A stretch of DNA of 5,802 nucleotides, taken from positions 1 through 5,802 of the IMG/VR virus record IMGVR_UViG_3300045988_019603. One strand, given 5' to 3'. Position numbers and translations under genes: made by a program. Each line of letters begins with the position of its first letter. The first letter of the stretch is position 1. Positions 1 through 5,802 of this stretch are shown piece by piece. Below the pieces are notes generated by a model, which saw only the letters and a program-made list of their open reading frames with translations, had not been told where the DNA came from and made no database searches. This DNA comes from a virus.

Positions 1-119
1 GATGCACGCAACGGCCGAGGCAGCAGCAGAAACACTAGAACAGCTGAAACAGATGCAGCAGACCGAACAACCGAAGCAGAACGAACAGCCAAAGCAGCCG
101 AAACCGGAAGAAAAAAAGA
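1..119. repeat. Terminal redundancy, copy 1 (identical to 5684..5802); marks a circular genome
   Basis: Base-by-base comparison shows 119/119 identity with the last 119 nt of the window. Confidence 0.95.
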
Positions 120-151
120 AAGAGGTGAAGGAAAACGAACCGAAACAGTGA
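1..151 (+). CDS. VP3: Putative internal scaffolding protein (VP3-like), 3' portion of a gene that wraps the circular junction (continues from 5388..5683)
   Basis: The frame starting at nt 2 is open to TGA 149-151. Nt 1-119 are identical to 5684-5802, where the same frame is open back to ATG 5388. The joined ORF is 444 nt (148 aa) plus a stop. It ends in a charged low-complexity tail (QPKQNEQPKQPKPEEKKKEVKENEPKQ). Its size and its position directly upstream of VP1 fit gokushovirus VP3. Sequence-level resemblance is weak by eye. Confidence 0.6.
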   Translation, partial: MHATAEAAAETLEQLKQMQQTEQPKQNEQPKQPKPEEKKKEVKENEPKQ

Positions 152-176
152 GAACCATTTCGCGCAAGTGCCGCGG

Positions 177-1868
177 ATGGAACGACCGCGAAGCAGATTT
201 GACCGGAGTCACCAACTCTTAACGACCATCAACGAAGGAGACCTAGTACCCATCTACTACGATGAGGTACTTCCGGGCGATACAGCAAAAGTACACCTTA
301 ACGGCCTTATCCGCATGAGCACACCAATCTATCCTATCATGGATAACTGTTACATGGATACATATTTCTTCTTTGTTCCGTGCCGTCTGCTGTGGGAGCA
401 CTGGGAGAACATGTTCGGCGAGAACGACACCGACTACTGGGCAGAAAAAACCGAATATTCCACACCGACATGCAAAATCGGCGGAAAAAGCGGACTGAAC
501 AACGGAAGCATAGGAGACTATTTCGGGCTTCCGACCGAGGTAAAAGGAGAAATCAAAGTAAACGCGCTGCCAGCACGCGCTTACGCCATGATTTATAATG
601 AGTGGTTCAGAGATGAAAACCTAGAAGCGCCAATGATGCTAGGCTACAAAAAAACGGATGAAGCGGGAAACGATGACGACCCGGCAAACGGAAACGATAT
701 GAACGCAAACATACCGTCGGTCACCACGATAACGAATGAAGCATACATTTACGGAAAAAGGCCAGCGAAAGCGGGAAAGTTTCACGACTACTTCACATCC
801 TGTCTGCCGTCACCGTTGAAAAATGACCCTATGGAGATCAACCTGACAGGTGATGCACCAGTAGTTATGGGCACCTACAACAGCGAAACAGGCAAGGTTG
901 AACCGTATAAAATGAACACGGATATCTGGTTCAACGGCACCGGCGTAGGCGCAGGACGGGCATTCAACCGAACTACCACGATTCCGACACCGGGATTTCC
1001 GGCGCTAGAACTGGCGGGTGTAGAAACCAACGGCGCAGCAACTGACCCAGAAGGAAACAACATCATAATGGGCGATCTGTACGCCAACCTGAGCAACGTG
1101 TCCGCAATCAACATTGCGGACCTACGCATGGCGATCGCCTTGCAGCATATCTTTGAAGCAGATGCACGCAACGGCACAAGGTACAGAGAGTTCCTTTCCG
1201 GCACATGGGGCATAACATCACCGGACAGCCGGCTTCAGATTCCTGAGTACATCGGCGGGCAGCGCATTGCAATCAATGTCAATCAGGTCGTTCAGACAAG
1301 CCAGACGGACACCACGACCGGACAGGCATTGGGCAATACGGCAGCATACAGTCTGACCACATGCAGCAAGCAGATGGTAGACTATGCAGCAACCGAATAC
1401 GGCTATATCATTGGTCTGGCAGTGGTACGAGTAGAGCACAGCTATCAGCAAGGACTTGCGACAAAGTGGACACGCGGCGGGCGGTTCACATACTACGACC
1501 CGCGATTAGCAGCGCTAGGCGAACAGCCAGTATATAATCGTGAAATCTATGCACAAGGCACTCCCGAAGATGAAGAAATCTTCGGCTACCAGGAGGCTTG
1601 GGCGGATTACCGCTACAAGCCATCTTACATAACTGGAGAAATGCGGTCGAACTATAAGACCAGTTTGGACGCATGGCACTATGCAGACGATTATAACAAA
1701 CTCCCACGTCTCTCGGCAGAGTGGATTCAAGAAGGACAAGAGAACATTGACCGAACGATTGCAGTAACAAGCAACGTATCACACCAGTTCTTGTGTGACT
1801 TCTATTTCACAGAAGAATGGTATCGCGAAATGCCTATTTACAGTATTCCCGGCATCGAGAGAATCTAA
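177..1868 (+). CDS. VP1: Microviridae major capsid protein VP1 (F-protein family), 563 aa
   Basis: The N-terminus MERPRSRFDRSHQLLTTINEGDLVPIYYDEVLPGDT...FFFVPCRLLWEHWENMF matches the conserved gokushovirus VP1 signature (FD-SH, G-L-P, EVLPGD, FFVP-RL-W). The size is typical. ATG 177 is preferred over the track's in-frame GTG 168. No canonical SD lies upstream of either start. The stop is TAA 1866-1868. Confidence 0.95.
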   Translation: MERPRSRFDRSHQLLTTINEGDLVPIYYDEVLPGDTAKVHLNGLIRMSTPIYPIMDNCYMDTYFFFVPCRLLWEHWENMFGENDTDYWAEKTEYSTPTCKIGGKSGLNNGSIGDYFGLPTEVKGEIKVNALPARAYAMIYNEWFRDENLEAPMMLGYKKTDEAGNDDDPANGNDMNANIPSVTTITNEAYIYGKRPAKAGKFHDYFTSCLPSPLKNDPMEINLTGDAPVVMGTYNSETGKVEPYKMNTDIWFNGTGVGAGRAFNRTTTIPTPGFPALELAGVETNGAATDPEGNNIIMGDLYANLSNVSAINIADLRMAIALQHIFEADARNGTRYREFLSGTWGITSPDSRLQIPEYIGGQRIAINVNQVVQTSQTDTTTGQALGNTAAYSLTTCSKQMVDYAATEYGYIIGLAVVRVEHSYQQGLATKWTRGGRFTYYDPRLAALGEQPVYNREIYAQGTPEDEEIFGYQEAWADYRYKPSYITGEMRSNYKTSLDAWHYADDYNKLPRLSAEWIQEGQENIDRTIAVTSNVSHQFLCDFYFTEEWYREMPIYSIPGIERI

Positions 1869-1878
1869 GAAAGGAGGA

Positions 1879-1904
1879 AGCCCCGCAAAAGCGGGGCTAT
1901 TTTT
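1879..1904 (+). terminator. Rho-independent terminator-like hairpin after VP1, lying between the VP2 SD and the VP2 start codon
   Basis: The stem AGCCCCGC (1879-1886) pairs with GCGGGGCT (1891-1898) around loop AAAA, and ATTTTT follows. The SD AAGGAGGA (1871-1878) sits immediately 5' and ATG 1907 immediately 3'. Confidence 0.7.
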
Positions 1905-1906
1905 GA

Positions 1907-2779
1907 ATGGAAACATTATTAAAACTTTTGCCATCACTCATGAAAGGACTGAGTATATTAACAGGCATCATAACGAACAGTAACCAGAGCAGCGCCAAAA
2001 ACAGCCAAGGAACAGGCAGCGAGAGCAGCACAGGCAGCGAGACCACAACCGGCAGCGTAACAGCACCGCAGCAGATAGGAGCAACGCAAATCAGCACGCC
2101 AACAGGTATTACCACATTCGGCAACCAGAGCAGCGTAAACACCGCAAACGCACTGCAAATGATGAGCGGACTGCTGAGCAACATCGCAAATGCTGGAAGC
2201 CAAGCAAGCGCCAAGAAGTACAACAGCGCAGAAGCAGCAGCAGAAAGAGCGTTTCAGAAAGAGATGCGTGGGACGGCCTATCAGGATACCGTAAAGGACA
2301 TGATAGCAGCGGGCATCAATCCTATTCTAGCAGCAACCAACGGGGCAACAAGCGCACCATCAGGAGCGTCTGCAAGCATTGGAAGCCAACACTATAACCA
2401 GCAGAGCGCACAGGCAGCAAGCGTATCCGCAATGTACGAATACGGCAACAACACGGCAGAACTGGCAGACAAATACTTAAAACTGGCAAAACAGAGCACC
2501 AGCGCAAAACAATTTAAGAGCGCGAAAAGCTGGGAACAGGCAGCGAGCGAGCTGGCAACCTCAAGCGCAAAACAGGCACAACAGTACACCTATACAGCTA
2601 ACAAATTGGGCTCAGGCCTTGCGAAAGCAGGAGAAAAAGCCAAAGACGCAGCAAAAAAGGCTGGTAAAGCAGCCAAAGAAGGCGTTGACAAAGTGGCAGA
2701 AGATACTATCAACAAGGCAGCAAGAAGACGCAAACTAATAGATGGATTCAAATCTGGAAAAACATACACAGGAGACTAA
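1907..2779 (+). CDS. VP2: Microviridae minor capsid / DNA pilot protein VP2, 290 aa
   Basis: It contains the conserved VP2 core motif ...AERAFQKEMRGTAYQDTVKDMIAAGINPILA... (TAYQ-x5-DM-x2-AG-NP-LA). It has a hydrophobic N-terminus, a Ser/Thr/Gly/Gln-rich region and an Ala/Lys-rich C-terminus. Its position directly after VP1 is the expected one. Confidence 0.85.
   Translation: METLLKLLPSLMKGLSILTGIITNSNQSSAKNSQGTGSESSTGSETTTGSVTAPQQIGATQISTPTGITTFGNQSSVNTANALQMMSGLLSNIANAGSQASAKKYNSAEAAAERAFQKEMRGTAYQDTVKDMIAAGINPILAATNGATSAPSGASASIGSQHYNQQSAQAASVSAMYEYGNNTAELADKYLKLAKQSTSAKQFKSAKSWEQAASELATSSAKQAQQYTYTANKLGSGLAKAGEKAKDAAKKAGKAAKEGVDKVAEDTINKAARRRKLIDGFKSGKTYTGD
2012..2065 (+). repeat. Degenerate 18-nt tandem repeat x3 inside VP2 (TGSESS / TGSETT / TGSVTA)
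   Basis: The copies are ACAGGCAGCGAGAGCAGC (2012-2029), ACAGGCAGCGAGACCACA (2030-2047) and ACCGGCAGCGTAACAGCA (2048-2065). They are in frame with VP2. Confidence 0.7.
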
Positions 2780-2785
2780 GAAAGG

Positions 2786-2815
2786 AAGGGGGATGGCAAA
2801 ACATCCCCCTTTTTT
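2786..2815 (+). terminator. Rho-independent terminator after VP2
   Basis: A 10-bp stem, AAGGGGGATG (2786-2795) paired with CATCCCCCTT (2802-2811), encloses loop GCAAAA. The T-run continues to 2815. Confidence 0.75.
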
Positions 2816-2981
2816 AGTAACAATAATCCAGAAAATAGAGAATGTGGAAAACTTGAGTTTTCAACACTTTCAACAGGTTTTCAACAACAAGTTGCACAAA
2901 GAAATTCGTCATAATGACGAACTTTCAACAATTCAACAAGTTTTCAACAAAGTTTTCAACAGGCAAAAAGGCAATAAATAA
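2793..2981 (+). CDS. Doubtful 62-aa ORF across the iteron region (hypothetical; probably non-coding)
   Basis: ATG 2793 follows AAGGA (2782-2786) but lies inside the terminator stem. The ORF body is made of the TTCAACA repeats, which fall in all three codon phases. The region is also visibly T-richer than the genes. The track's longer version (2742 start) overlaps the VP2 3' end. Confidence 0.2.
   Translation: MAKHPPFLVTIIQKIENVENLSFQHFQQVFNNKLHKEIRHNDELSTIQQVFNKVFNRQKGNK
2858..2961 (+). repeat. Iteron array: seven direct copies of TTCAACA (extended (G)TTTTCAACA), three upstream and four downstream of a hairpin
   Basis: TTCAACA starts at 2860, 2869 and 2880, then at 2924, 2932, 2943 and 2955. 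Spacings are 8-12 nt. I spotted no exact TTCAACA anywhere else in the window. A degenerate copy, GAGTTTTCAAAAG, is at 3003-3015. Confidence 0.8.
2901..2926 (+). promoter_or_regulatory. Hairpin at the centre of the iteron array (candidate origin or operator stem-loop)
   Basis: The core stem is TTCGTC (2905-2910) paired with GACGAA (2916-2921), with loop ATAAT. Bulging C2922 extends it by GAAA (2901-2904) paired with TTTC (2923-2926). Confidence 0.5.
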
Positions 2982-3024
2982 ACGTAGTAACGTTAAAAAA
3001 ACGAGTTTTCAAAAGTTTCCACGC

Positions 3025-3042
3025 TACTACTACTACTACTAC
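3025..3042. repeat. Perfect (TAC)6 trinucleotide microsatellite in non-coding DNA
   Basis: TACTACTACTACTACTAC is read directly at 3025-3042. Confidence 0.95.
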
Positions 3043-3077
3043 AACAAGTTAATATATAAAGGAAGCGAGGTGTCAAA

Positions 3078-3108
3078 CGGCACAAGATAGACAAGGAAGC
3101 TTGTGCCG
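3078..3108 (+). promoter_or_regulatory. Perfect 9-bp hairpin immediately upstream of the VP4 start; SD-like AAGGAAG lies in the loop
   Basis: CGGCACAAG (3078-3086) pairs with CTTGTGCCG (3100-3108). The 13-nt loop ATAGACAAGGAAG contains AAGGAAG (3093-3099). The alternative in-frame GTG 3103 lies in the 3' arm. ATG 3118 is 10 nt downstream. Confidence 0.5.
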
Positions 3109-3117
3109 GTAACAAAA

Positions 3118-4107
3118 ATGCCATGTACAAAACCATTAGTATTTCAGATGGATACGAAAAAACCGCAACTGTGGGGAAGTCTGGAAAACCTATCAAAGCA
3201 AGGACTGCAAGCGGACATCATGGACGGAATCAAAAAAGGAAAATTCGCATTGTTACCATGCGGTAAATGCGAGTATTGCCGCAAACAGATGGCAGAACAA
3301 TGGGCAACAAGAATAGAGCTAGAAGCCAAAGAGTGGGACGATGTGATTTTTCTAACGCTAACATATGACGATGATCATATCCCATACGGCGAAATTATCA
3401 AAGGCTACAAAAGCATTCAAAGTCAGACAGTGAGCAAGCGAGACGTGCAACTATTCCTAAAACGGCTACGGAAAGCGTACAAAAAGCCAATAAAATACTT
3501 CCTAGCAGCCGAATATGGAGACAGAACAAAAAGACCACACTATCACGCGATAGTATTTGGACTGAAGCCACCCGATGCACAATGGTATAAAAACCAAAAG
3601 GGCAACAGCTACTTTAAAAGCGAGTGGTTGCAAAAAATCTGGGGGAAGGGCATGATAGACTTTTCACCAGCACAGCCGGGCAGCTACGCATATGTGGCGC
3701 AGTACGTCAACAAGAAAGCCATAGGCGCAGAGCAAGAGGCTAAATACTGGATGGAAGGTCGAGAACCAGAGTTCCGAATCATGTCGAAAGGCATCGGCGA
3801 AAAATATCTGAAAGAACATAAAGATGAAATCTTGAAAACAGATAACATCATATGCGCAGGAGGACGCTCAAAAAGGCCTCCACGCTATTTTGATAAGATT
3901 CTAGATAAAGATACCAGCCAAGACACAGAAAGCTACTTTAAAGCACATTCTGAAAAACTAAGAGAGGTTAGAGCCAAACGCAGACGCAACGCAATACAAA
4001 GTTTAATCAATATCGAACAAAGCACCAGCGTAGATTATGAAACCTATCTCAACATTCAGAAAGAAAAAAACAAGCTAAAGCAAAAGTGGCGTGAGCCGAA
4101 AGCATGA
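3118..4107 (+). CDS. VP4: Microviridae replication initiation protein VP4 (HUH rolling-circle endonuclease), 329 aa
   Basis: The N-terminus MPCTKP is typical (M-x-C-x-x-P). A Cys cluster follows (LPCGKCEYCR). Motif 1 is FLTLTYDD. The HUH motif PHYHAIVF has H-Y-H at 3538-3546. The two-tyrosine motif YVAQYVNK is at 3691-3714. An alternative start at GTG 3103 (5 codons longer, nearer the SD-like AAGGAAG) cannot be excluded. Confidence 0.93.
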   Translation: MPCTKPLVFQMDTKKPQLWGSLENLSKQGLQADIMDGIKKGKFALLPCGKCEYCRKQMAEQWATRIELEAKEWDDVIFLTLTYDDDHIPYGEIIKGYKSIQSQTVSKRDVQLFLKRLRKAYKKPIKYFLAAEYGDRTKRPHYHAIVFGLKPPDAQWYKNQKGNSYFKSEWLQKIWGKGMIDFSPAQPGSYAYVAQYVNKKAIGAEQEAKYWMEGREPEFRIMSKGIGEKYLKEHKDEILKTDNIICAGGRSKRPPRYFDKILDKDTSQDTESYFKAHSEKLREVRAKRRRNAIQSLINIEQSTSVDYETYLNIQKEKNKLKQKWREPKA

Positions 4108-4205
4108 CGCGCACAGCGCTAAAAAGGAATGGATTTAGCCGAGTTCCGCATACGCTACACACGGCAGAGCGCTAAAGCGCTTTCAAAACAAAGGAGCAAA
4201 ACCGG

Positions 4206-4239
4206 GTTACAAAAGAAAGTTACAATTTTATTACAAAAC
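4206..4239 (+). repeat. Three direct repeats of (G/A)TTACAA upstream of the peptidase promoter
   Basis: TTACAA occurs at 4207-4212, 4220-4225 and 4231-4236. Spacings are 13 and 11 nt, roughly one helical turn. Confidence 0.5.
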
Positions 4240-4261
4240 GGGAAAATCAATAAAAAACCTA

Positions 4262-4278
4262 TTGACATATGATATAAT
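4262..4278 (+). promoter_or_regulatory. Extended -10 sigma-70-type promoter (TGATATAAT) for the peptidase and downstream genes
   Basis: TG is at 4270-4271 and a consensus TATAAT at 4273-4278. A consensus TTGACA (4262-4267) is only 5 nt upstream, so it is not at functional -35 spacing. The call rests on the extended -10 alone. Confidence 0.5.
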
Positions 4279-4397
4279 AGAATCGAAAAAAAGAGAGGTA
4301 AACACCATGAAAAAGTAAAAATTCCTAGTAAGAGTATACTTCAAGAACAATACAACAGAATAGACCAAACACTTGAGTTTTAAAGAGGTTGACAAAA

Positions 4398-4790
4398 ATG
4401 CTTAAAAGCTATATCATGAACACAGACGGAAATGTACAGCTTACAAGACACTTCAAAGTAAAAGAATTTGCATGTAAAGACGGCAGTCCAGTAGTATTCA
4501 TAGACGACTACCTATACACCGTTCTGGATATCTTACGACATAAGATAGGAAAACCGGTAATCATTACCAGCGGATACAGAACACCAGAGTGGAACAAAAA
4601 ATGCAGTGGAGCAAAATACAGCTATCACATGCGCGGTATGGCAGCAGACATCCGGGCCGATGGCATGAGTGCAAAAGAGCTTGCCAACAAACTGGATGAA
4701 ATCGTCCCGGATGAATGCGGCATTATCGTATACAACAACTGGGTGCACTTTGATGTACGACCCGGGAAAAAATACAGAAAGGGGGTGTAA
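4398..4790 (+). CDS. Zinc D,D-/L,D-peptidase of the M15 (LAS / VanY-like, Peptidase_M15_3-type) family; probable cell-wall hydrolase or lysin, 130 aa
   Basis: The motif series is F-x-x-x-EF-x-C, SGYRTPEWN, S-Y-H-MRGMAAD (His77-x6-Asp84, codons 4626-4628 and 4647-4649) and WVHFD (His117, 4746-4748). This gives the H-x6-D...H zinc triad of M15/LAS enzymes. The SD AAAGAGG (4382-4388) lies 9 nt before ATG 4398. The track's TTG 4389 start abuts the SD and is unlikely. Confidence 0.85.
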   Translation: MLKSYIMNTDGNVQLTRHFKVKEFACKDGSPVVFIDDYLYTVLDILRHKIGKPVIITSGYRTPEWNKKCSGAKYSYHMRGMAADIRADGMSAKELANKLDEIVPDECGIIVYNNWVHFDVRPGKKYRKGV

Positions 4791-4792
4791 CA

Positions 4793-4867
4793 ATGAAATC
4801 ATGGAATGTACGCGACCAGACCAAAAAAACAAATTGTGAGCAAAACAGAAAAAACAGAAAGGAGTAA
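4793..4867 (+). CDS. Possible 24-aa basic peptide (MKSWNVRDQTKKTNCEQNRKNRKE) filling the gap between the peptidase and the J-like gene
   Basis: ATG 4793 lies about 6 nt after AAGGGGGT (4780-4787). The stop TAA 4865-4867 overlaps the next gene's SD. It is below the ORF-track size cutoff and no family is recognised. Confidence 0.3.
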   Translation: MKSWNVRDQTKKTNCEQNRKNRKE

Positions 4868-4871
4868 ACCA

Positions 4872-4988
4872 ATGGCACACAGAAGCGAAGCAGGTCGAGG
4901 CGACCAGAAAAAATTTACCCAGACTGCAAAGCGGGTAAAAAACATCAACGTAAGGCCGAAGGTATCACGAGGCGGTGTCCGGCTGTAA
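4872..4988 (+). CDS. Small basic DNA-binding/packaging protein, analogue of phiX174 J and gokushovirus ORF8, 38 aa
   Basis: The protein is MAHRSEAGRGDQKKFTQTAKRVKNINVRPKVSRGGVRL. It is highly basic and ends in RGG-(I/V)-RL, which I recall as typical of these small Microviridae proteins. The SD AAAGGAG (4858-4864) lies 7 nt upstream. The track's longer 4806 start has no SD. Confidence 0.65.
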   Translation: MAHRSEAGRGDQKKFTQTAKRVKNINVRPKVSRGGVRL

Positions 4989-5019
4989 ACGACACAAACC
5001 AAAGAAAGGAGGTGAATTA

Positions 5020-5136
5020 ATGGCACTAATTAAAGTCAAAGACGTAAAAGAAGCAATCGCCCTAATGATGAACATCCTTGAAAAGCTCGACGAAATCTAC
5101 CACGCGCTAAAGGATGCAAGCAAAGAAAAAGAGTAA
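5020..5136 (+). CDS. Hypothetical 38-aa protein (MALIKVKDVKEAIALMMNILEKLDEIYHALKDASKEKE), predicted amphipathic helix
   Basis: A near-perfect SD, AAAGGAGGTG (5005-5014), lies 5 nt before ATG 5020. The stop TAA 5134-5136 overlaps the VP5 SD, so packing is tight. It is absent from the ORF track (under 60 aa) and no family is recognised. Confidence 0.55.
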   Translation: MALIKVKDVKEAIALMMNILEKLDEIYHALKDASKEKE

Positions 5137-5146
5137 AGGAGAAAAC

Positions 5147-5401
5147 ATGAAACTGAAATTCTACTCATTCCACGATGCATTGACCAACGGCTATTCACAG
5201 CCATTTCTGCAGAACAACAGAGCACAGGCGGTCCGGACGGCACGATGGAAAGCCAACGAAAGCAAACCGAGTGAAATCGAAGATATTTCGCTCGTAGAGT
5301 TAGGCGAGTTCGACACTGAAACGGGCTACATGAGCGAAGCAATGCCTGAACACATCGCACGGCTCATCGACCTGAAGGAGACGACCAATGTTAAATCCTG
5401 A
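5147..5401 (+). CDS. VP5: Gokushovirus VP5-like non-structural protein (proposed phiX174 protein C analogue), 84 aa
   Basis: MKLKFYSFHDALTNGYSQPFLQNNRAQAVRTA....DISLVELGEFDTETGYM matches the VP5 pattern I recall (MK-x-Y-x-x-D-x-x-x-x-x-F-x-x-PF...A-x-R-F...D-x-x-L-x-x-LG-x-FD-x-x-TG). The SD AAGGAG (5136-5141) lies 5 nt before ATG 5147. The track's 5114 start lies inside the preceding small gene and has no SD. Confidence 0.75.
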   Translation: MKLKFYSFHDALTNGYSQPFLQNNRAQAVRTARWKANESKPSEIEDISLVELGEFDTETGYMSEAMPEHIARLIDLKETTNVKS

Positions 5402-5802
5402 AGCACTGGTAAGGTACTACGGTCTGCCGACCGAGAGAGTAACAAACAATCCGGGCAGCAAAACCACACCAACGTGGAAAGCAGTCAAACGACCGAACGG
5501 CACTACAGACTATATCGAGCAGCCGGACGAAAACACATACGAAAAAATCCAGCGAGCCGGCGAGGGCTACGACCTTGCAAGCGCAATCGCAAGACTGGAA
5601 GCAGGGGATACCAGCATCAAAGCAAAGAGCATGGTATACACCGAAGGAACTAACCTTGAAAATCTGCCGAAGGATATCATGACGATGCACGCAACGGCCG
5701 AGGCAGCAGCAGAAACACTAGAACAGCTGAAACAGATGCAGCAGACCGAACAACCGAAGCAGAACGAACAGCCAAAGCAGCCGAAACCGGAAGAAAAAAA
5801 GA
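5388..5802 (+). CDS. VP3: Putative internal scaffolding protein (VP3-like), 5' portion; runs off the window end and continues at nt 1..151 via the terminal overlap
   Basis: ATG 5388 lies 7 nt after AAGGAG (5375-5380) and overlaps the VP5 3' end by 14 nt. I translated the frame by hand (MLNPEALVRYYGLPTERVTNNPGSK...) and it stays open to the window end. It is absent from the ORF track because no stop occurs before nt 5802. Confidence 0.6.
   Translation, partial: MLNPEALVRYYGLPTERVTNNPGSKTTPTWKAVKRPNGTTDYIEQPDENTYEKIQRAGEGYDLASAIARLEAGDTSIKAKSMVYTEGTNLENLPKDIMTMHATAEAAAETLEQLKQMQQTEQPKQNEQPKQPKPEEKK
5684..5802. repeat. Terminal redundancy, copy 2 (identical to 1..119)
   Basis: 119/119 identity with the window start. 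Confidence 0.95.

Follow-up and report, generated by a model that had tools for sequence, protein, structure and literature searches.

The VP2-VP4 intergenic region and its repeats

The window analysed here, a stretch of 5,802 nt (positions 1 to 5,802 of the IMG/VR record IMGVR_UViG_3300045988_019603), belongs to a circular gokushovirus of 5683 nt in which VP2 ends at 2779 and VP4 starts at 3118. VP4 (3118-4107, + strand) is the HUH replication initiator (Rep), matching Pfam REP_ORF2-G2P with E = 1.4e-20. The gap between the two genes is non-coding, as its two ORFs have no family match above any curated cut-off and the repeats described below occupy all three codon phases. An Rfam scan of 2700-3200 found nothing near threshold (best 22.9 bits against a gathering score of 58.7), and no consensus promoter or terminator sites were found inside the element. 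Two structures flank the element without being part of it. On the left lies the VP2 terminator hairpin (2786-2816, + strand), a 10-bp perfect inverted repeat AAGGGGGATG/CATCCCCCTT followed by TTTTTT. On the right lies a VP4 leader stem-loop (3078-3108, + strand; -10.4 kcal/mol, z -6.0), which shows compensatory changes at two stem positions across clade A, is absent in clade B (the two clades of gokushoviruses carrying the element are referred to as A and B), and in KT264784 is separated from the element by about 230 nt.

The heptamer TTCAACA occurs seven times on the + strand, at 2860, 2869, 2880, 2924, 2932, 2943 and 2955, and nowhere else in the genome; no further copy is found in the window on either strand. 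The chance expectation is 1.03, and 0 of 200 shuffles reached seven copies. The array described by the sequence-only reading is thus confirmed, at the positions it gave, and the codon phases it listed are arithmetically correct. CAACAAGTT recurs at 2885, 2934 and 3042 as it had stated, the phiX174 origin sequence it gave is correct, and so is the 11/20 match to that sequence. The hairpin it placed at 2901-2926 also exists: folded as DNA it gives -7.6 kcal/mol (z = -4.8, 0/200 shuffles), while as duplex it is the palindrome TTCGTCAT-A-ATGACGAA (2905-2921).

Yet the repeat unit is longer than had been noticed, a 9-mer TTTTCAACA or CTTTCAACA of about 12 nt with its linker, and the element extends on both sides of the reported span. 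At its left end lies an eighth, inverted copy at 2843-2851 (TGTGGAAAA; on the - strand TTTTCCACA, a perfect match to the DnaA-box pattern TTWTNCACA), which is present in 48/59 clade A and 11/92 clade B unique elements. A first block of three direct boxes (+ strand) follows at 2858-2886, namely TTTTCAACA at 2858-2866, CTTTCAACA at 2867-2875 and TTTTCAACA at 2878-2886, holding the first three heptamers. The central spacer (2887-2921) carries the semi-conserved GTTGCACAAAG and the palindrome. The second block (2922-2961, + strand) has four direct boxes with start-to-start spacings of 8, 11 and 12 nt, CTTTCAACA at 2922-2930, AATTCAACA at 2930-2938, TTTTCAACA at 2941-2949 and TTTTCAACA at 2953-2961, holding heptamers four to seven. 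An AT-rich second spacer (2962-3005) with the semi-conserved ACGT-N-ACGTTAAAA leads to a tandem box pair that is decayed in this genome, TTTTCAAAA at 3006-3014 and GTTTCCACG at 3015-3023 (+ strand), each with 3 mismatches to the canonical DnaA box TTATCCACA. In close relatives these two copies are perfect TTCAACA, within TTTTCAACA-C-TTTCAACA, whereas clade B has TTTTCAAC-TTTTCCACA followed by a 4-bp spacer.

The best-conserved part of the element lies beyond the span first reported. At 3024-3041 (+ strand) we found (CTA)6 (period 3, 6.3 copies, 100% match; expected 0.00 for four or more CTA), followed by CAACAAGTTA at 3042-3051, which is invariant in the BLAST-selected alignment and runs into the AT run TTAATATATAAA (3049-3060). 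The region 3000-3062 has no predicted structure (MFE 0; all 200 shuffles fold at least as well). CAACAAGTTA with the AT run (3042-3058) forms the putative unwinding region and a possible Rep cleavage site, as it matches the phiX174 cleavage decamer CAACTTGATA at 7/10 positions. Altogether, 2843-3058 is a self-contained non-coding element of about 215 nt.

Distribution of the element and its relation to Rep

The element is present in more than 200 gut gokushovirus genomes. In 148 aligned elements the box columns are at least 95% conserved, while the linkers are weaker; across 148-151 non-redundant elements the only common alternatives are T/A at position 3 and A/C at position 6, giving TTTTCAACA, TTTTCCACA, TTATCAACA and the canonical TTATCCACA. 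The element is 75% identical between clades, against 58-60% for VP1 and VP4 DNA and a 54% background, in 55/55 comparisons (a more lenient identity measure, under which shuffled sequence scored 0.75, was discarded). Apart from one Shine-Dalgarno-like word (AAGAAAGGAG), the only 10-mers shared between the clades lie in the element. The complete box-trio-AT core is conserved better than any gene in hundreds of gut gokushovirus genomes, yet part of the high identity between clades may reflect recent exchange of a block that includes the peptidase, which is 81-87% identical at the DNA level. The element travels with the M15 lysis enzyme and a shared flank. It should be kept in mind that the large comparison set was selected with the trio core, and only three of the sets are unbiased.

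The main proposal of the sequence-only reading was that the repeats are iterons bound by the phage Rep around a nick-site hairpin, as in CRESS-DNA viruses and geminiviruses. This interpretation is only partly supported: the region is indeed a conserved DNA-level protein-binding array with the look of a replication origin, but the evidence favours the reading's fallback suggestion, a host-factor binding array, and the Rep-iteron model fails the tests that could be run. Co-variation of the repeats with VP4, which had been proposed in advance as the way to examine the model, was not seen; the same TT(T/A)TC(A/C)ACA boxes occur with Reps 33-96% identical to that of the window, and the boxes are unchanged between clades whose Reps are only 33-38% identical (35-38% when clades A and B are compared with each other). 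Moreover, the element is inverted relative to rep between genomes whose Reps are 93% identical, and within one Rep lineage of 85-91% identity the two orientations number 73 versus 6 (inversion being seen overall between Reps 86-93% identical), while gene-strand base skew does not change with orientation. The element lies upstream of rep in one clade and downstream in the other. The central hairpin is not universal either: a stem of at least 6 bp is present in 71% of clade A and 47% of clade B elements, its loop varies, and some lineages have an alternative hairpin TGCACAAA/TTTGTGCA or none. In addition, 31 gokushoviruses of a third, equally related group and three cultured ones (phiMH2K, Chp2 and SpV4) have no box cluster and no trio run.

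Nonetheless, some link with Rep is still possible. The sequence-only reading had set itself one refuting condition, close Rep relatives that lack the array, and this was not triggered, as within both Rep lineages nearly every complete genome has the element. The element adjoins rep in all 149 genomes assessed, its trio/AT end faces rep in 144 of them, and direct repeats next to rep are a classic origin layout. The invariant CAACAAGTTA, with its 7/10 match to the phiX174 decamer in structure-free DNA, could be the nick site of a rolling-circle (viral-strand) origin, although the element-less relatives show no comparable motif, group C genomes show no consistent CAACNNGNTA, and no Rep nick motif shared by all three groups was found at the 10-mer level. 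A literature search for the phiX174 decamer returned only unrelated primer sequences. The repeat family and the trio module, moreover, match those of DnaA sites. Binding and nicking by VP4 were not assayed. On balance, we consider a Rep-iteron origin unlikely.

A scan of 185,579 bacterial and archaeal species representatives for the invariant core gave 20 hits, of which nineteen are Thr/Tyr/Asn-rich coding sequence and one is a free 5.7-kb phage contig; no host origin with this core, no integrated copy and no host were identified. No similarity was found in PLSDB plasmids, and the best matches to a dif/XerCD site have 10-12 mismatches of 28. A loose scan of viral contigs for iteron pairs returned mostly chance hits and was abandoned, and a scan of viral contigs for the unwinding module with canonical boxes found larger contigs but no other microviruses.

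A putative DnaA-directed unwinding module

The 9-mer TT(T/A)TC(A/C)ACA falls within the DnaA-box family. TTATCAACA and TTTTCAACA are used as boxes or standard motifs for Clostridium, Treponema, Mycoplasma, Borrelia, Porphyromonas and Chlamydophila origins (Pelliciari 2021, PMC8287927), and TTTTCAACA is one mismatch from TTWTNCACA, the search standard used for C. difficile oriC. Yet the commonest box of the element has A at position 6, which the E. coli consensus lists as C. Within 119 nt (2843-2961) there are five TTWTCMACA sites against 0.18 expected for the whole window, and by the criterion used to predict origins (at least three boxes matching TTWTNCACA with no more than 1 mismatch, mean spacing below 100 bp) the window qualifies as a DnaA-box cluster, with one perfect and four one-mismatch boxes.

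On the complementary strand (CTA)6 reads as six perfect DnaA-trios, 3'-GAT-5', where the published "basal unwinding system" (BUS) of bacterial oriC asks for at least three consecutive trios (3'-NAN-5', consensus 3'-GAT-5'); relatives have 3-6. Boxes and trios share the strand, orientation and register of the B. subtilis, S. elongatus, S. aureus and H. pylori origin scaffolds, and a tandem box pair is present in the window and in relatives. The phage consensus TTTTCAAC-TTTTCCACA-GCCC-(CTA)5-CAACAAG-TTATATA can be compared with S. elongatus TTTTCCACA-TTTTCCACA-GCCCC-TACTACTAC, B. subtilis TTATCCACA-AATCCACA-GGCC-CTACTATTACTTCTACTA, Bdellovibrio TTTTCCACG-CCC-(CTA)5 and C. botulinum TATCAACA-AGCC-(CTA)6, with the same strand, orientation and 4-bp spacer. 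Although boxes were not part of the search pattern, 116 of 151 unique elements have a box with no more than 2 mismatches within 13 bp of the first trio, 36 of them with TTTTCCACA at a spacer of exactly 4 bp. The published rule places such a box 0-16 bp upstream of the first trio. By this rule with the E. coli standard TTATCCACA the window narrowly fails, like 35 of the 151 relatives, but TTTTCAAAA is only 1 mismatch from the element's own commonest box TTTTCAACA; since the standard of the host is not known, this point is left undecided for the window. The short GC-rich gap is lacking in the window, where the box abuts the trios (CCACG|CTA), whereas clade B relatives have a 4-bp gap (GCCC, TTGC, TACT and others); given the permitted 0-16 bp spacer, the gap is typical rather than obligatory. 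AT-rich DNA immediately beyond the trios is present in the window, and an AT run is conserved in relatives.

We therefore favour, with a probability of roughly 60%, that the element copies the architecture of a bacterial chromosomal origin core, with about ten DnaA boxes, nine of them pointing the same way, the last tandem pair leading straight into 5-6 trios and an AT-rich, structure-free stretch. The sequence anatomy and the comparisons between genomes are what the analysis demonstrates, whereas the role of DnaA and the mechanism below are inferred from them; neither DnaA binding nor strand separation, on scaffolds such as TTTTCAACTTTTCCACAGCCC|CTACTACTACTACTA or on the window itself, nor replication was measured, and the box preference of the host DnaA was not checked. 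In this view, host DnaA-ATP would occupy the box array on the double-stranded replicative form and, guided by the trio-proximal boxes, extend as a filament onto the trio strand and open the adjacent AT-rich DNA. The opened region would then serve either, as we prefer, as an entry site for the host replicative helicase, giving Rep-independent, plasmid-like (theta) replication or maintenance of the replicative form tied to the initiation potential of the host, or as single-stranded substrate that helps the HUH Rep to nick. The invariant CAACAAGTTA is not a trio and is not explained by the DnaA model. Because the partner would be the conserved host initiator rather than the fast-evolving Rep, the module could be inverted, moved to either side of rep and exchanged between phage lineages together with other host-linked genes. 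The unchanged strand skew fits a function on duplex DNA.

Other roles were considered. The array may bind host DnaA only to titrate or redirect it, as a datA-like decoy that perturbs host initiation, or to let DnaA regulate phage transcription. The box evidence is the same, many replicative-form copies with about ten boxes each would be an effective sink, and independence from orientation fits. However, the most strongly conserved part is not the box array but the trio-proximal pair, the trios and the AT run, with fixed spacing; these matter only for strand opening, and a decoy or operator would not need them, making this role improbable. Even less likely is an array for a different factor, such as a host response regulator that binds direct repeats at about 10-11 bp spacing, Spo0A-like sites (TGNCGAA in the palindrome) or an unrecognised small phage protein. 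The spacings of 8-12 nt and the two inverted TGACGAA of the palindrome are in its favour, and the DnaA assignment rests on resemblance alone. Yet no phage ORF co-occurs strictly with the element (the peptidase is in 52/84 clade B genomes and the others in fewer), the palindrome is not universal, and the trio and spacer geometry, which matches bacterial origins base for base, would not be explained.

Finally, the inverted box could pair with box 1 in a hairpin (2843-2866) on the packaged single strand and nucleate a DnaA-DnaB-DnaC primosome of the ABC type to start conversion to the replicative form, a mechanism established for M13 carrying an A-site hairpin. A stem forms on either strand, so orientation would not matter. 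The hairpin is predicted but weak (-5.6 kcal/mol, z -1.9; 10/200 shuffles do as well), and the inverted copy is missing in 81/92 clade B elements; while these observations do not settle whether it is an A-site, nine direct boxes and the trios would serve no purpose, and we regard this as the least likely of the alternatives.

Microviridae are the textbook case of replication by a phage HUH nuclease plus host elongation factors, and DnaA plays no part in phiX174 replication. No paper in the library searched links Microviridae or Gokushovirinae to DnaA boxes or trios, and an oriC-like module in such phages would suggest an unreported way to replicate or persist. Perhaps, and this is only a tentative possibility, a widespread group of human and animal gut gokushoviruses carries a functional, portable oriC-type origin, whose replicative form could replicate as a DnaA-dependent minichromosome with plasmid-like, cell-cycle-coupled persistence without integration, alongside Rep-driven rolling-circle production of progeny ssDNA. 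That would be a single-stranded DNA phage with two replication modes, one taken over entirely from the host's chromosomal initiation system. If the module works as predicted, these phages would read the initiation state of the host directly, a concrete mechanism would be offered for the long-term, non-lysogenic persistence of gokushoviruses in the gut, and the minimal bacterial origin core would be shown to be a mobile module that viruses can capture and shuffle. It would also provide a naturally minimised (about 60-215 nt), highly sampled variant series for studying DnaA-trio function.

Comparison with known origins

The closest known system is the BUS, that is, DnaA-boxes #6/#7, the GC spacer, DnaA-trios and AT-rich region of the B. 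subtilis origin and its predicted counterparts in about 85% of bacteria (Richardson 2016/2019; Pelliciari 2021, PMC8287927). Tandem boxes in the orientation and strand of the 5'-CTA-3' repeats, a spacer of 0-4 bp, 5-6 trios, the following AT-rich DNA and a further upstream box cluster are shared, and the phage consensus is nearly superimposable on the S. elongatus, Bdellovibrio and C. botulinum cores. In contrast, the phage module sits in a 5.7-kb single-stranded DNA phage next to an HUH rep gene and not next to dnaA/dnaN, its nine boxes all point one way with 8-12 nt spacing, the non-trio CAACAAGTTA follows the trios, and it is inverted and moved between genomes; in the window itself the proximal boxes are degenerate and an extra CTA replaces the GC spacer. 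It may therefore work like an oriC core but is not one.

The phiX174 viral-strand origin, 30 nt inside gene A with CAACTTG/ATATTAATAAC (NC_001422, rep_origin 4306), belongs to the same virus family and is served by a homologous HUH initiator, and CAACAAGTTA with its AT run resembles the cleavage decamer. The element differs in being intergenic, accompanied by box and trio repeats and variable in orientation, and the resemblance is short and lies in AT-rich sequence. With CRESS-DNA virus and geminivirus origins, made of iterons plus a nonanucleotide stem-loop, it shares direct repeats near a hairpin next to an HUH rep gene, but not co-variation of the repeats with Rep, a conserved hairpin and loop, or a fixed orientation. 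The A-site of the ABC-primosome, an ssDNA hairpin containing a DnaA box (Masai 1990), could be imitated by the inverted and direct boxes on phage ssDNA, although that hairpin is weak and not conserved and the rest of the module would be superfluous.

DnaA-assisted plasmid and phage origins, such as P1 oriR and the F, pSC101, RK2 and R6K origins with DnaA boxes beside Rep iterons, as well as oriC minichromosomes, likewise represent mobile replicons that recruit host DnaA through boxes, and if the theta-mode reading is right, the replicative form would behave like an oriC minichromosome. Those origins pair a few DnaA boxes with iterons for their own initiator and have no DnaA-trios, whereas here the repeats themselves are the DnaA-box-like sites and a full box-trio core is present. 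None of those replicons is a single-stranded DNA virus.

Genome organization and the repeat array

The window is a complete circular gokushovirus genome of 5683 nt, in which a terminal direct repeat of 119 nt (positions 1-119 repeated at 5684-5802) shows that the circle was opened inside the VP3 gene. All genes lie on the + strand; these are the VP1 capsid at 168-1868 (Pfam Phage_F, E = 1.8e-147), VP2 at 1907-2779, VP4, the HUH Rep, at 3118-4107 (REP_ORF2-G2P), an M15 peptidase at 4389-4790, VP5 and the VP3 scaffold. The closest GenBank records are human-gut Gokushovirinae.

The sequence-only reading had reported seven TTCAACA repeats around a hairpin upstream of the rep gene, and this observation was confirmed. 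TTCAACA occurs at 2860, 2869, 2880, 2924, 2932, 2943 and 2955, all on the + strand and nowhere else in the window, whereas chance expectation is 1.03 and 0 of 200 shuffles reach seven. The hairpin (2901-2926), the recurrences of CAACAAGTT (2885, 2934 and 3042), the spread of the repeats over all three codon phases and the phiX origin sequence used for comparison were all correct as well. Yet the description was incomplete in three ways. First, the repeat unit is a 9-mer (TTTTCAACA or CTTTCAACA). Second, an eighth, inverted copy lies at 2843-2851 (TTTTCCACA on the - strand). Third, two decayed copies lie at 3006-3023 and are followed by (CTA)6, CAACAAGTTA and an AT run. The accompanying interpretation, a candidate origin or Rep-binding region of the iteron type, was only partly supported, as our comparative data speak against Rep iterons.

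The central palindrome at 2905-2921 consists of two inverted TGACGAA, which fits the Spo0A-box consensus TGNCGAA, and the reverse complement of the repeat (TGTTGAA) is one base off TGTCGAA. If the host sporulates, Spo0A could bind here, as it does at phi29 and B. subtilis origins, although such binding was not examined. Between the element and VP4, a stem-loop at 3078-3108, just before the VP4 start codon, shows compensatory changes at two stem positions across clade A: CGGCACAAG/CTTGTGCCG, TGGCACAAG/…CCA, TGGCGCAAG/CTTGCGCCA and TGGCCCAAG/CTTGGGCCA, while the loop ATAGACAAG(G/T)AAG is conserved. It is preceded by a conserved Shine-Dalgarno-like GAGGTG (3067-3072), while the ATG at 3118 has no Shine-Dalgarno sequence of its own. 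Perhaps it brings a distant ribosome-binding site next to the start codon, or acts as a translational operator for Rep; clade B has nothing like it.

Distribution and conservation of the element

A BLASTN search with the gap (2812-3117) found about 200 nt of it (2859-3060) at 68-86% identity in 33 more gokushovirus records, while the two closest relatives match across the whole gap at 93-96%, giving 35 records in all. The Reps of most of these are only 33-40% identical to that of the window, and in most the element lies downstream of VP4 on the opposite strand. A scan of viral contigs for the invariant core, a set thus selected with the trio core, gave together with the loci already retrieved 161 gokushovirus loci carrying the element, on the gene strand in 73 and on the opposite strand in 88. 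Two clades emerge. In clade A (Rep 80-96% identical to the window), the element lies between VP2 and VP4 on the gene strand, whereas in clade B (Rep 33-43% identical) it lies after VP4 and is mostly inverted. One genome, L017 (IMGVR_UViG_3300045988_015275), has a clade A Rep (95% identical to that of the window) but the clade B arrangement, with the element inverted and just downstream of VP4, and is probably a recombinant.

Three samples that were unbiased with respect to the element agree with this picture. Close Rep relatives devoid of the array had been specified beforehand as evidence that would count against an origin or Rep-binding role; every complete genome with a capsid >=73% identical was found to have the element, and so did 79 of 80 close relatives of a clade B Rep, 73 inverted and 6 direct. 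The only close clade B relative without it, L469 (8,781 nt), is an over-length contig. In contrast, 31 genomes of a third group (capsid 51-55% identical, Rep 29-38% identical to both clades) lack the element and have only 0-4 scattered box-like 9-mers and no box-plus-trio arrangement. The cultured phages phiMH2K, Chp2 and SpV4 also lack it.

In an alignment of 148 non-redundant elements, the box columns are >=95% conserved and the linkers are much weaker, and within boxes the only frequent alternatives are T/A at position 3 and A/C at position 6. The family is therefore TT(T/A)TC(A/C)ACA, which includes TTTTCCACA and the canonical TTATCCACA. The most conserved block is the right end, composed of a tandem box pair, a 0-4 bp spacer, (CTA)3-6, CTACAACAAGTT and an AT run. 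Between the window and 55 clade B genomes, the element is 75% identical, compared to 60% for VP1 DNA and 58% for VP4 DNA against a shuffled background of 54%, and the element is higher in 55 of 55 comparisons. Apart from one Shine-Dalgarno-like word, the only 10-mers shared by the two clades lie in the element.

Relation to Rep and to the neighbouring block

Co-variation of the repeats with VP4 had been put forward in advance as one way to examine an iteron function, yet the boxes do not change across Reps that are 33-38% identical. Moreover, MG945447 and MG945233 have Reps 93% identical but carry the element in opposite orientations, the difference being a clean inversion of only about 210 nt between collinear flanks, and both orientations coexist within one Rep lineage. 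The central hairpin is common but not universal, and some lineages have a different one in its place. No phage ORF co-occurs strictly with the element. The coding strand shows a very strong A-over-T skew, with gene-strand AT skew of +0.33 to +0.37 genome-wide and +0.47 to +0.56 at VP1 four-fold degenerate sites. It is the same in all three groups and whether the element is direct, inverted or absent, so there is no sign that the element sets the packaged strand, even though codon selection could mask such an effect. The phiX174 viral strand is T-rich, which would make this the opposite bias.

The sequence just right of the element in clade B is homologous to the sequence of the window immediately after the VP4 stop codon (4109 onward). 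This region (4109-4290, corresponding to 1385-1560 in gene sense of the clade B locus L173) contains a conserved TTGACA (4262-4267) overlapping an extended -10 TGATATAAT (4270-4278), and a small hairpin, AGCGC-TAAA-GCGCT (4168-4181), which in clade B reads GGCGC-TAAA-GCGCC, a compensatory change. The M15 peptidase is 68-72% identical in protein between the two element-bearing clades (81-87% in nucleotides), against 37-41% in protein for the core genes, capsid and Rep, and is nearly absent from the element-less group (2/27), which indicates exchange of a host-linked block between gokushovirus lineages. The element therefore belongs to a host-linked accessory block, with the diverged Reps on different sides of it. 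Part of the high identity of the element may reflect recent exchange of this block, and for that reason the motif-resolved conservation is the stronger argument for constraint. Long GC-rich alternating CG/CA palindromes, e.g. TTTTCGCGCGTGCGCACGCGCGCGAAAA, lie beside the element in clade B and in KT264784 (loci L172, 1120-1175; L173 in gene sense, 1066-1110; L001, 2975-3015; L176, near 4400), whereas the window has none. They could be single-strand hairpins, for example a complementary-strand origin, or recombination hot spots at the inversion boundary. In addition, one contig (L011/L479, IMGVR_UViG_3300045988_004182, 10,711 nt) encodes both a clade A Rep (94% to the window) and a clade B Rep (89% to MG945233), and is either an assembly chimera joined through the shared element/peptidase block or a real co-integrate of two gokushoviruses.

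Resemblance to bacterial origin cores and proposed role

The resemblance to bacterial origins was checked against Pelliciari et al. 2021, who define the basal unwinding system (BUS) by a DnaA box with <=2 mismatches, often with a tandem second box, a spacer of <=16 bp including a GC-rich gap of about 4 bp, and at least 3 DnaA-trios with consensus 3'-GAT-5'. The box criterion is satisfied by 116 of 151 unique elements, although boxes were not part of the search pattern. The window itself narrowly fails with the E. coli standard, its proximal 9-mers having 3 mismatches each, and it also lacks the GC gap, which is replaced by a sixth CTA. The host, whose own standard would apply, was not identified, although strong Shine-Dalgarno sites suggest a Firmicutes-type host.

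Our analysis establishes the anatomy of the element, its match to the BUS, its conservation, and its independence from Rep and from orientation; what the element does is inferred from these, in the absence of any biochemical data. In this view, host DnaA-ATP would fill the box array on the replicative form, extend onto the trio strand and open the AT-rich, structure-free region (3000-3062 has MFE 0). We favour helicase loading and theta-type, plasmid-like replication or maintenance, as this reading explains the orientation independence, the full set of unwinding elements and the absence of integrated copies in bacterial genomes. A helper role for Rep nicking remains possible, since the element always adjoins rep, with the AT end facing it in 144 of 149 genomes, and the unexplained invariant CAACAAGTTA matches the phiX cleavage decamer at 7/10. 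A DnaA-box hairpin primosome site on ssDNA, a mechanism established for M13 A-site constructs, is weakly supported, as the hairpin is marginal and the inverted box is mostly absent in clade B.

Full-text searches combining Microviridae or Gokushovirinae with DnaA or DnaA box found nothing relevant, and a search for DnaA-trio with bacteriophage found no report of trios in a phage genome. The core itself is already described from bacterial origins, and what is new, as far as these searches go, is such a core in a single-stranded DNA phage. Box-trio cores may be more widespread in phages than is recognised, as about twenty larger IMG/VR contigs (among them our L391, L404, L399, L378/L394/L446, L389/L402/L423, L433, L444 and L414) carry textbook box-trio modules with 5-10 clustered canonical DnaA boxes, e.g. 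TTATCAAC-TTATCCACA-CCCC-(CTA)6-AAATATATATA. In L404 the nearest large ORF is a phage terminase (Terminase_6C), so at least some are genuine phage DNA and not chromosomal origins.

The phage consensus reads TTTTCAAC-TTTTCCACA-GCCC-(CTA)5-CAACAAG-TTATATA. Among the cores taken from the assay scaffolds and BUS tables of Pelliciari et al. 2021, that of B. subtilis is TTATCCACA-AATCCACA-GGCC-CTACTATTACTTCTACTA, that of S. elongatus TTTTCCACA-TTTTCCACA-GCCCC-TACTACTAC, that of Bdellovibrio TTTTCCACG-CCC-(CTA)5, that of C. botulinum TATCAACA-AGCC-(CTA)6 and that of C. acetobutylicum TTATCAACA-AATCCACA-CTCC-CTACTACTA…. Strand, orientation and spacing are the same. Boxes with A at position 6 are standard in several low-GC taxa, TTTTCAACA is within the one-mismatch tolerance used to map C. 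difficile oriC, and the C. difficile trio run is CACCTACTACTATTACTACTA.
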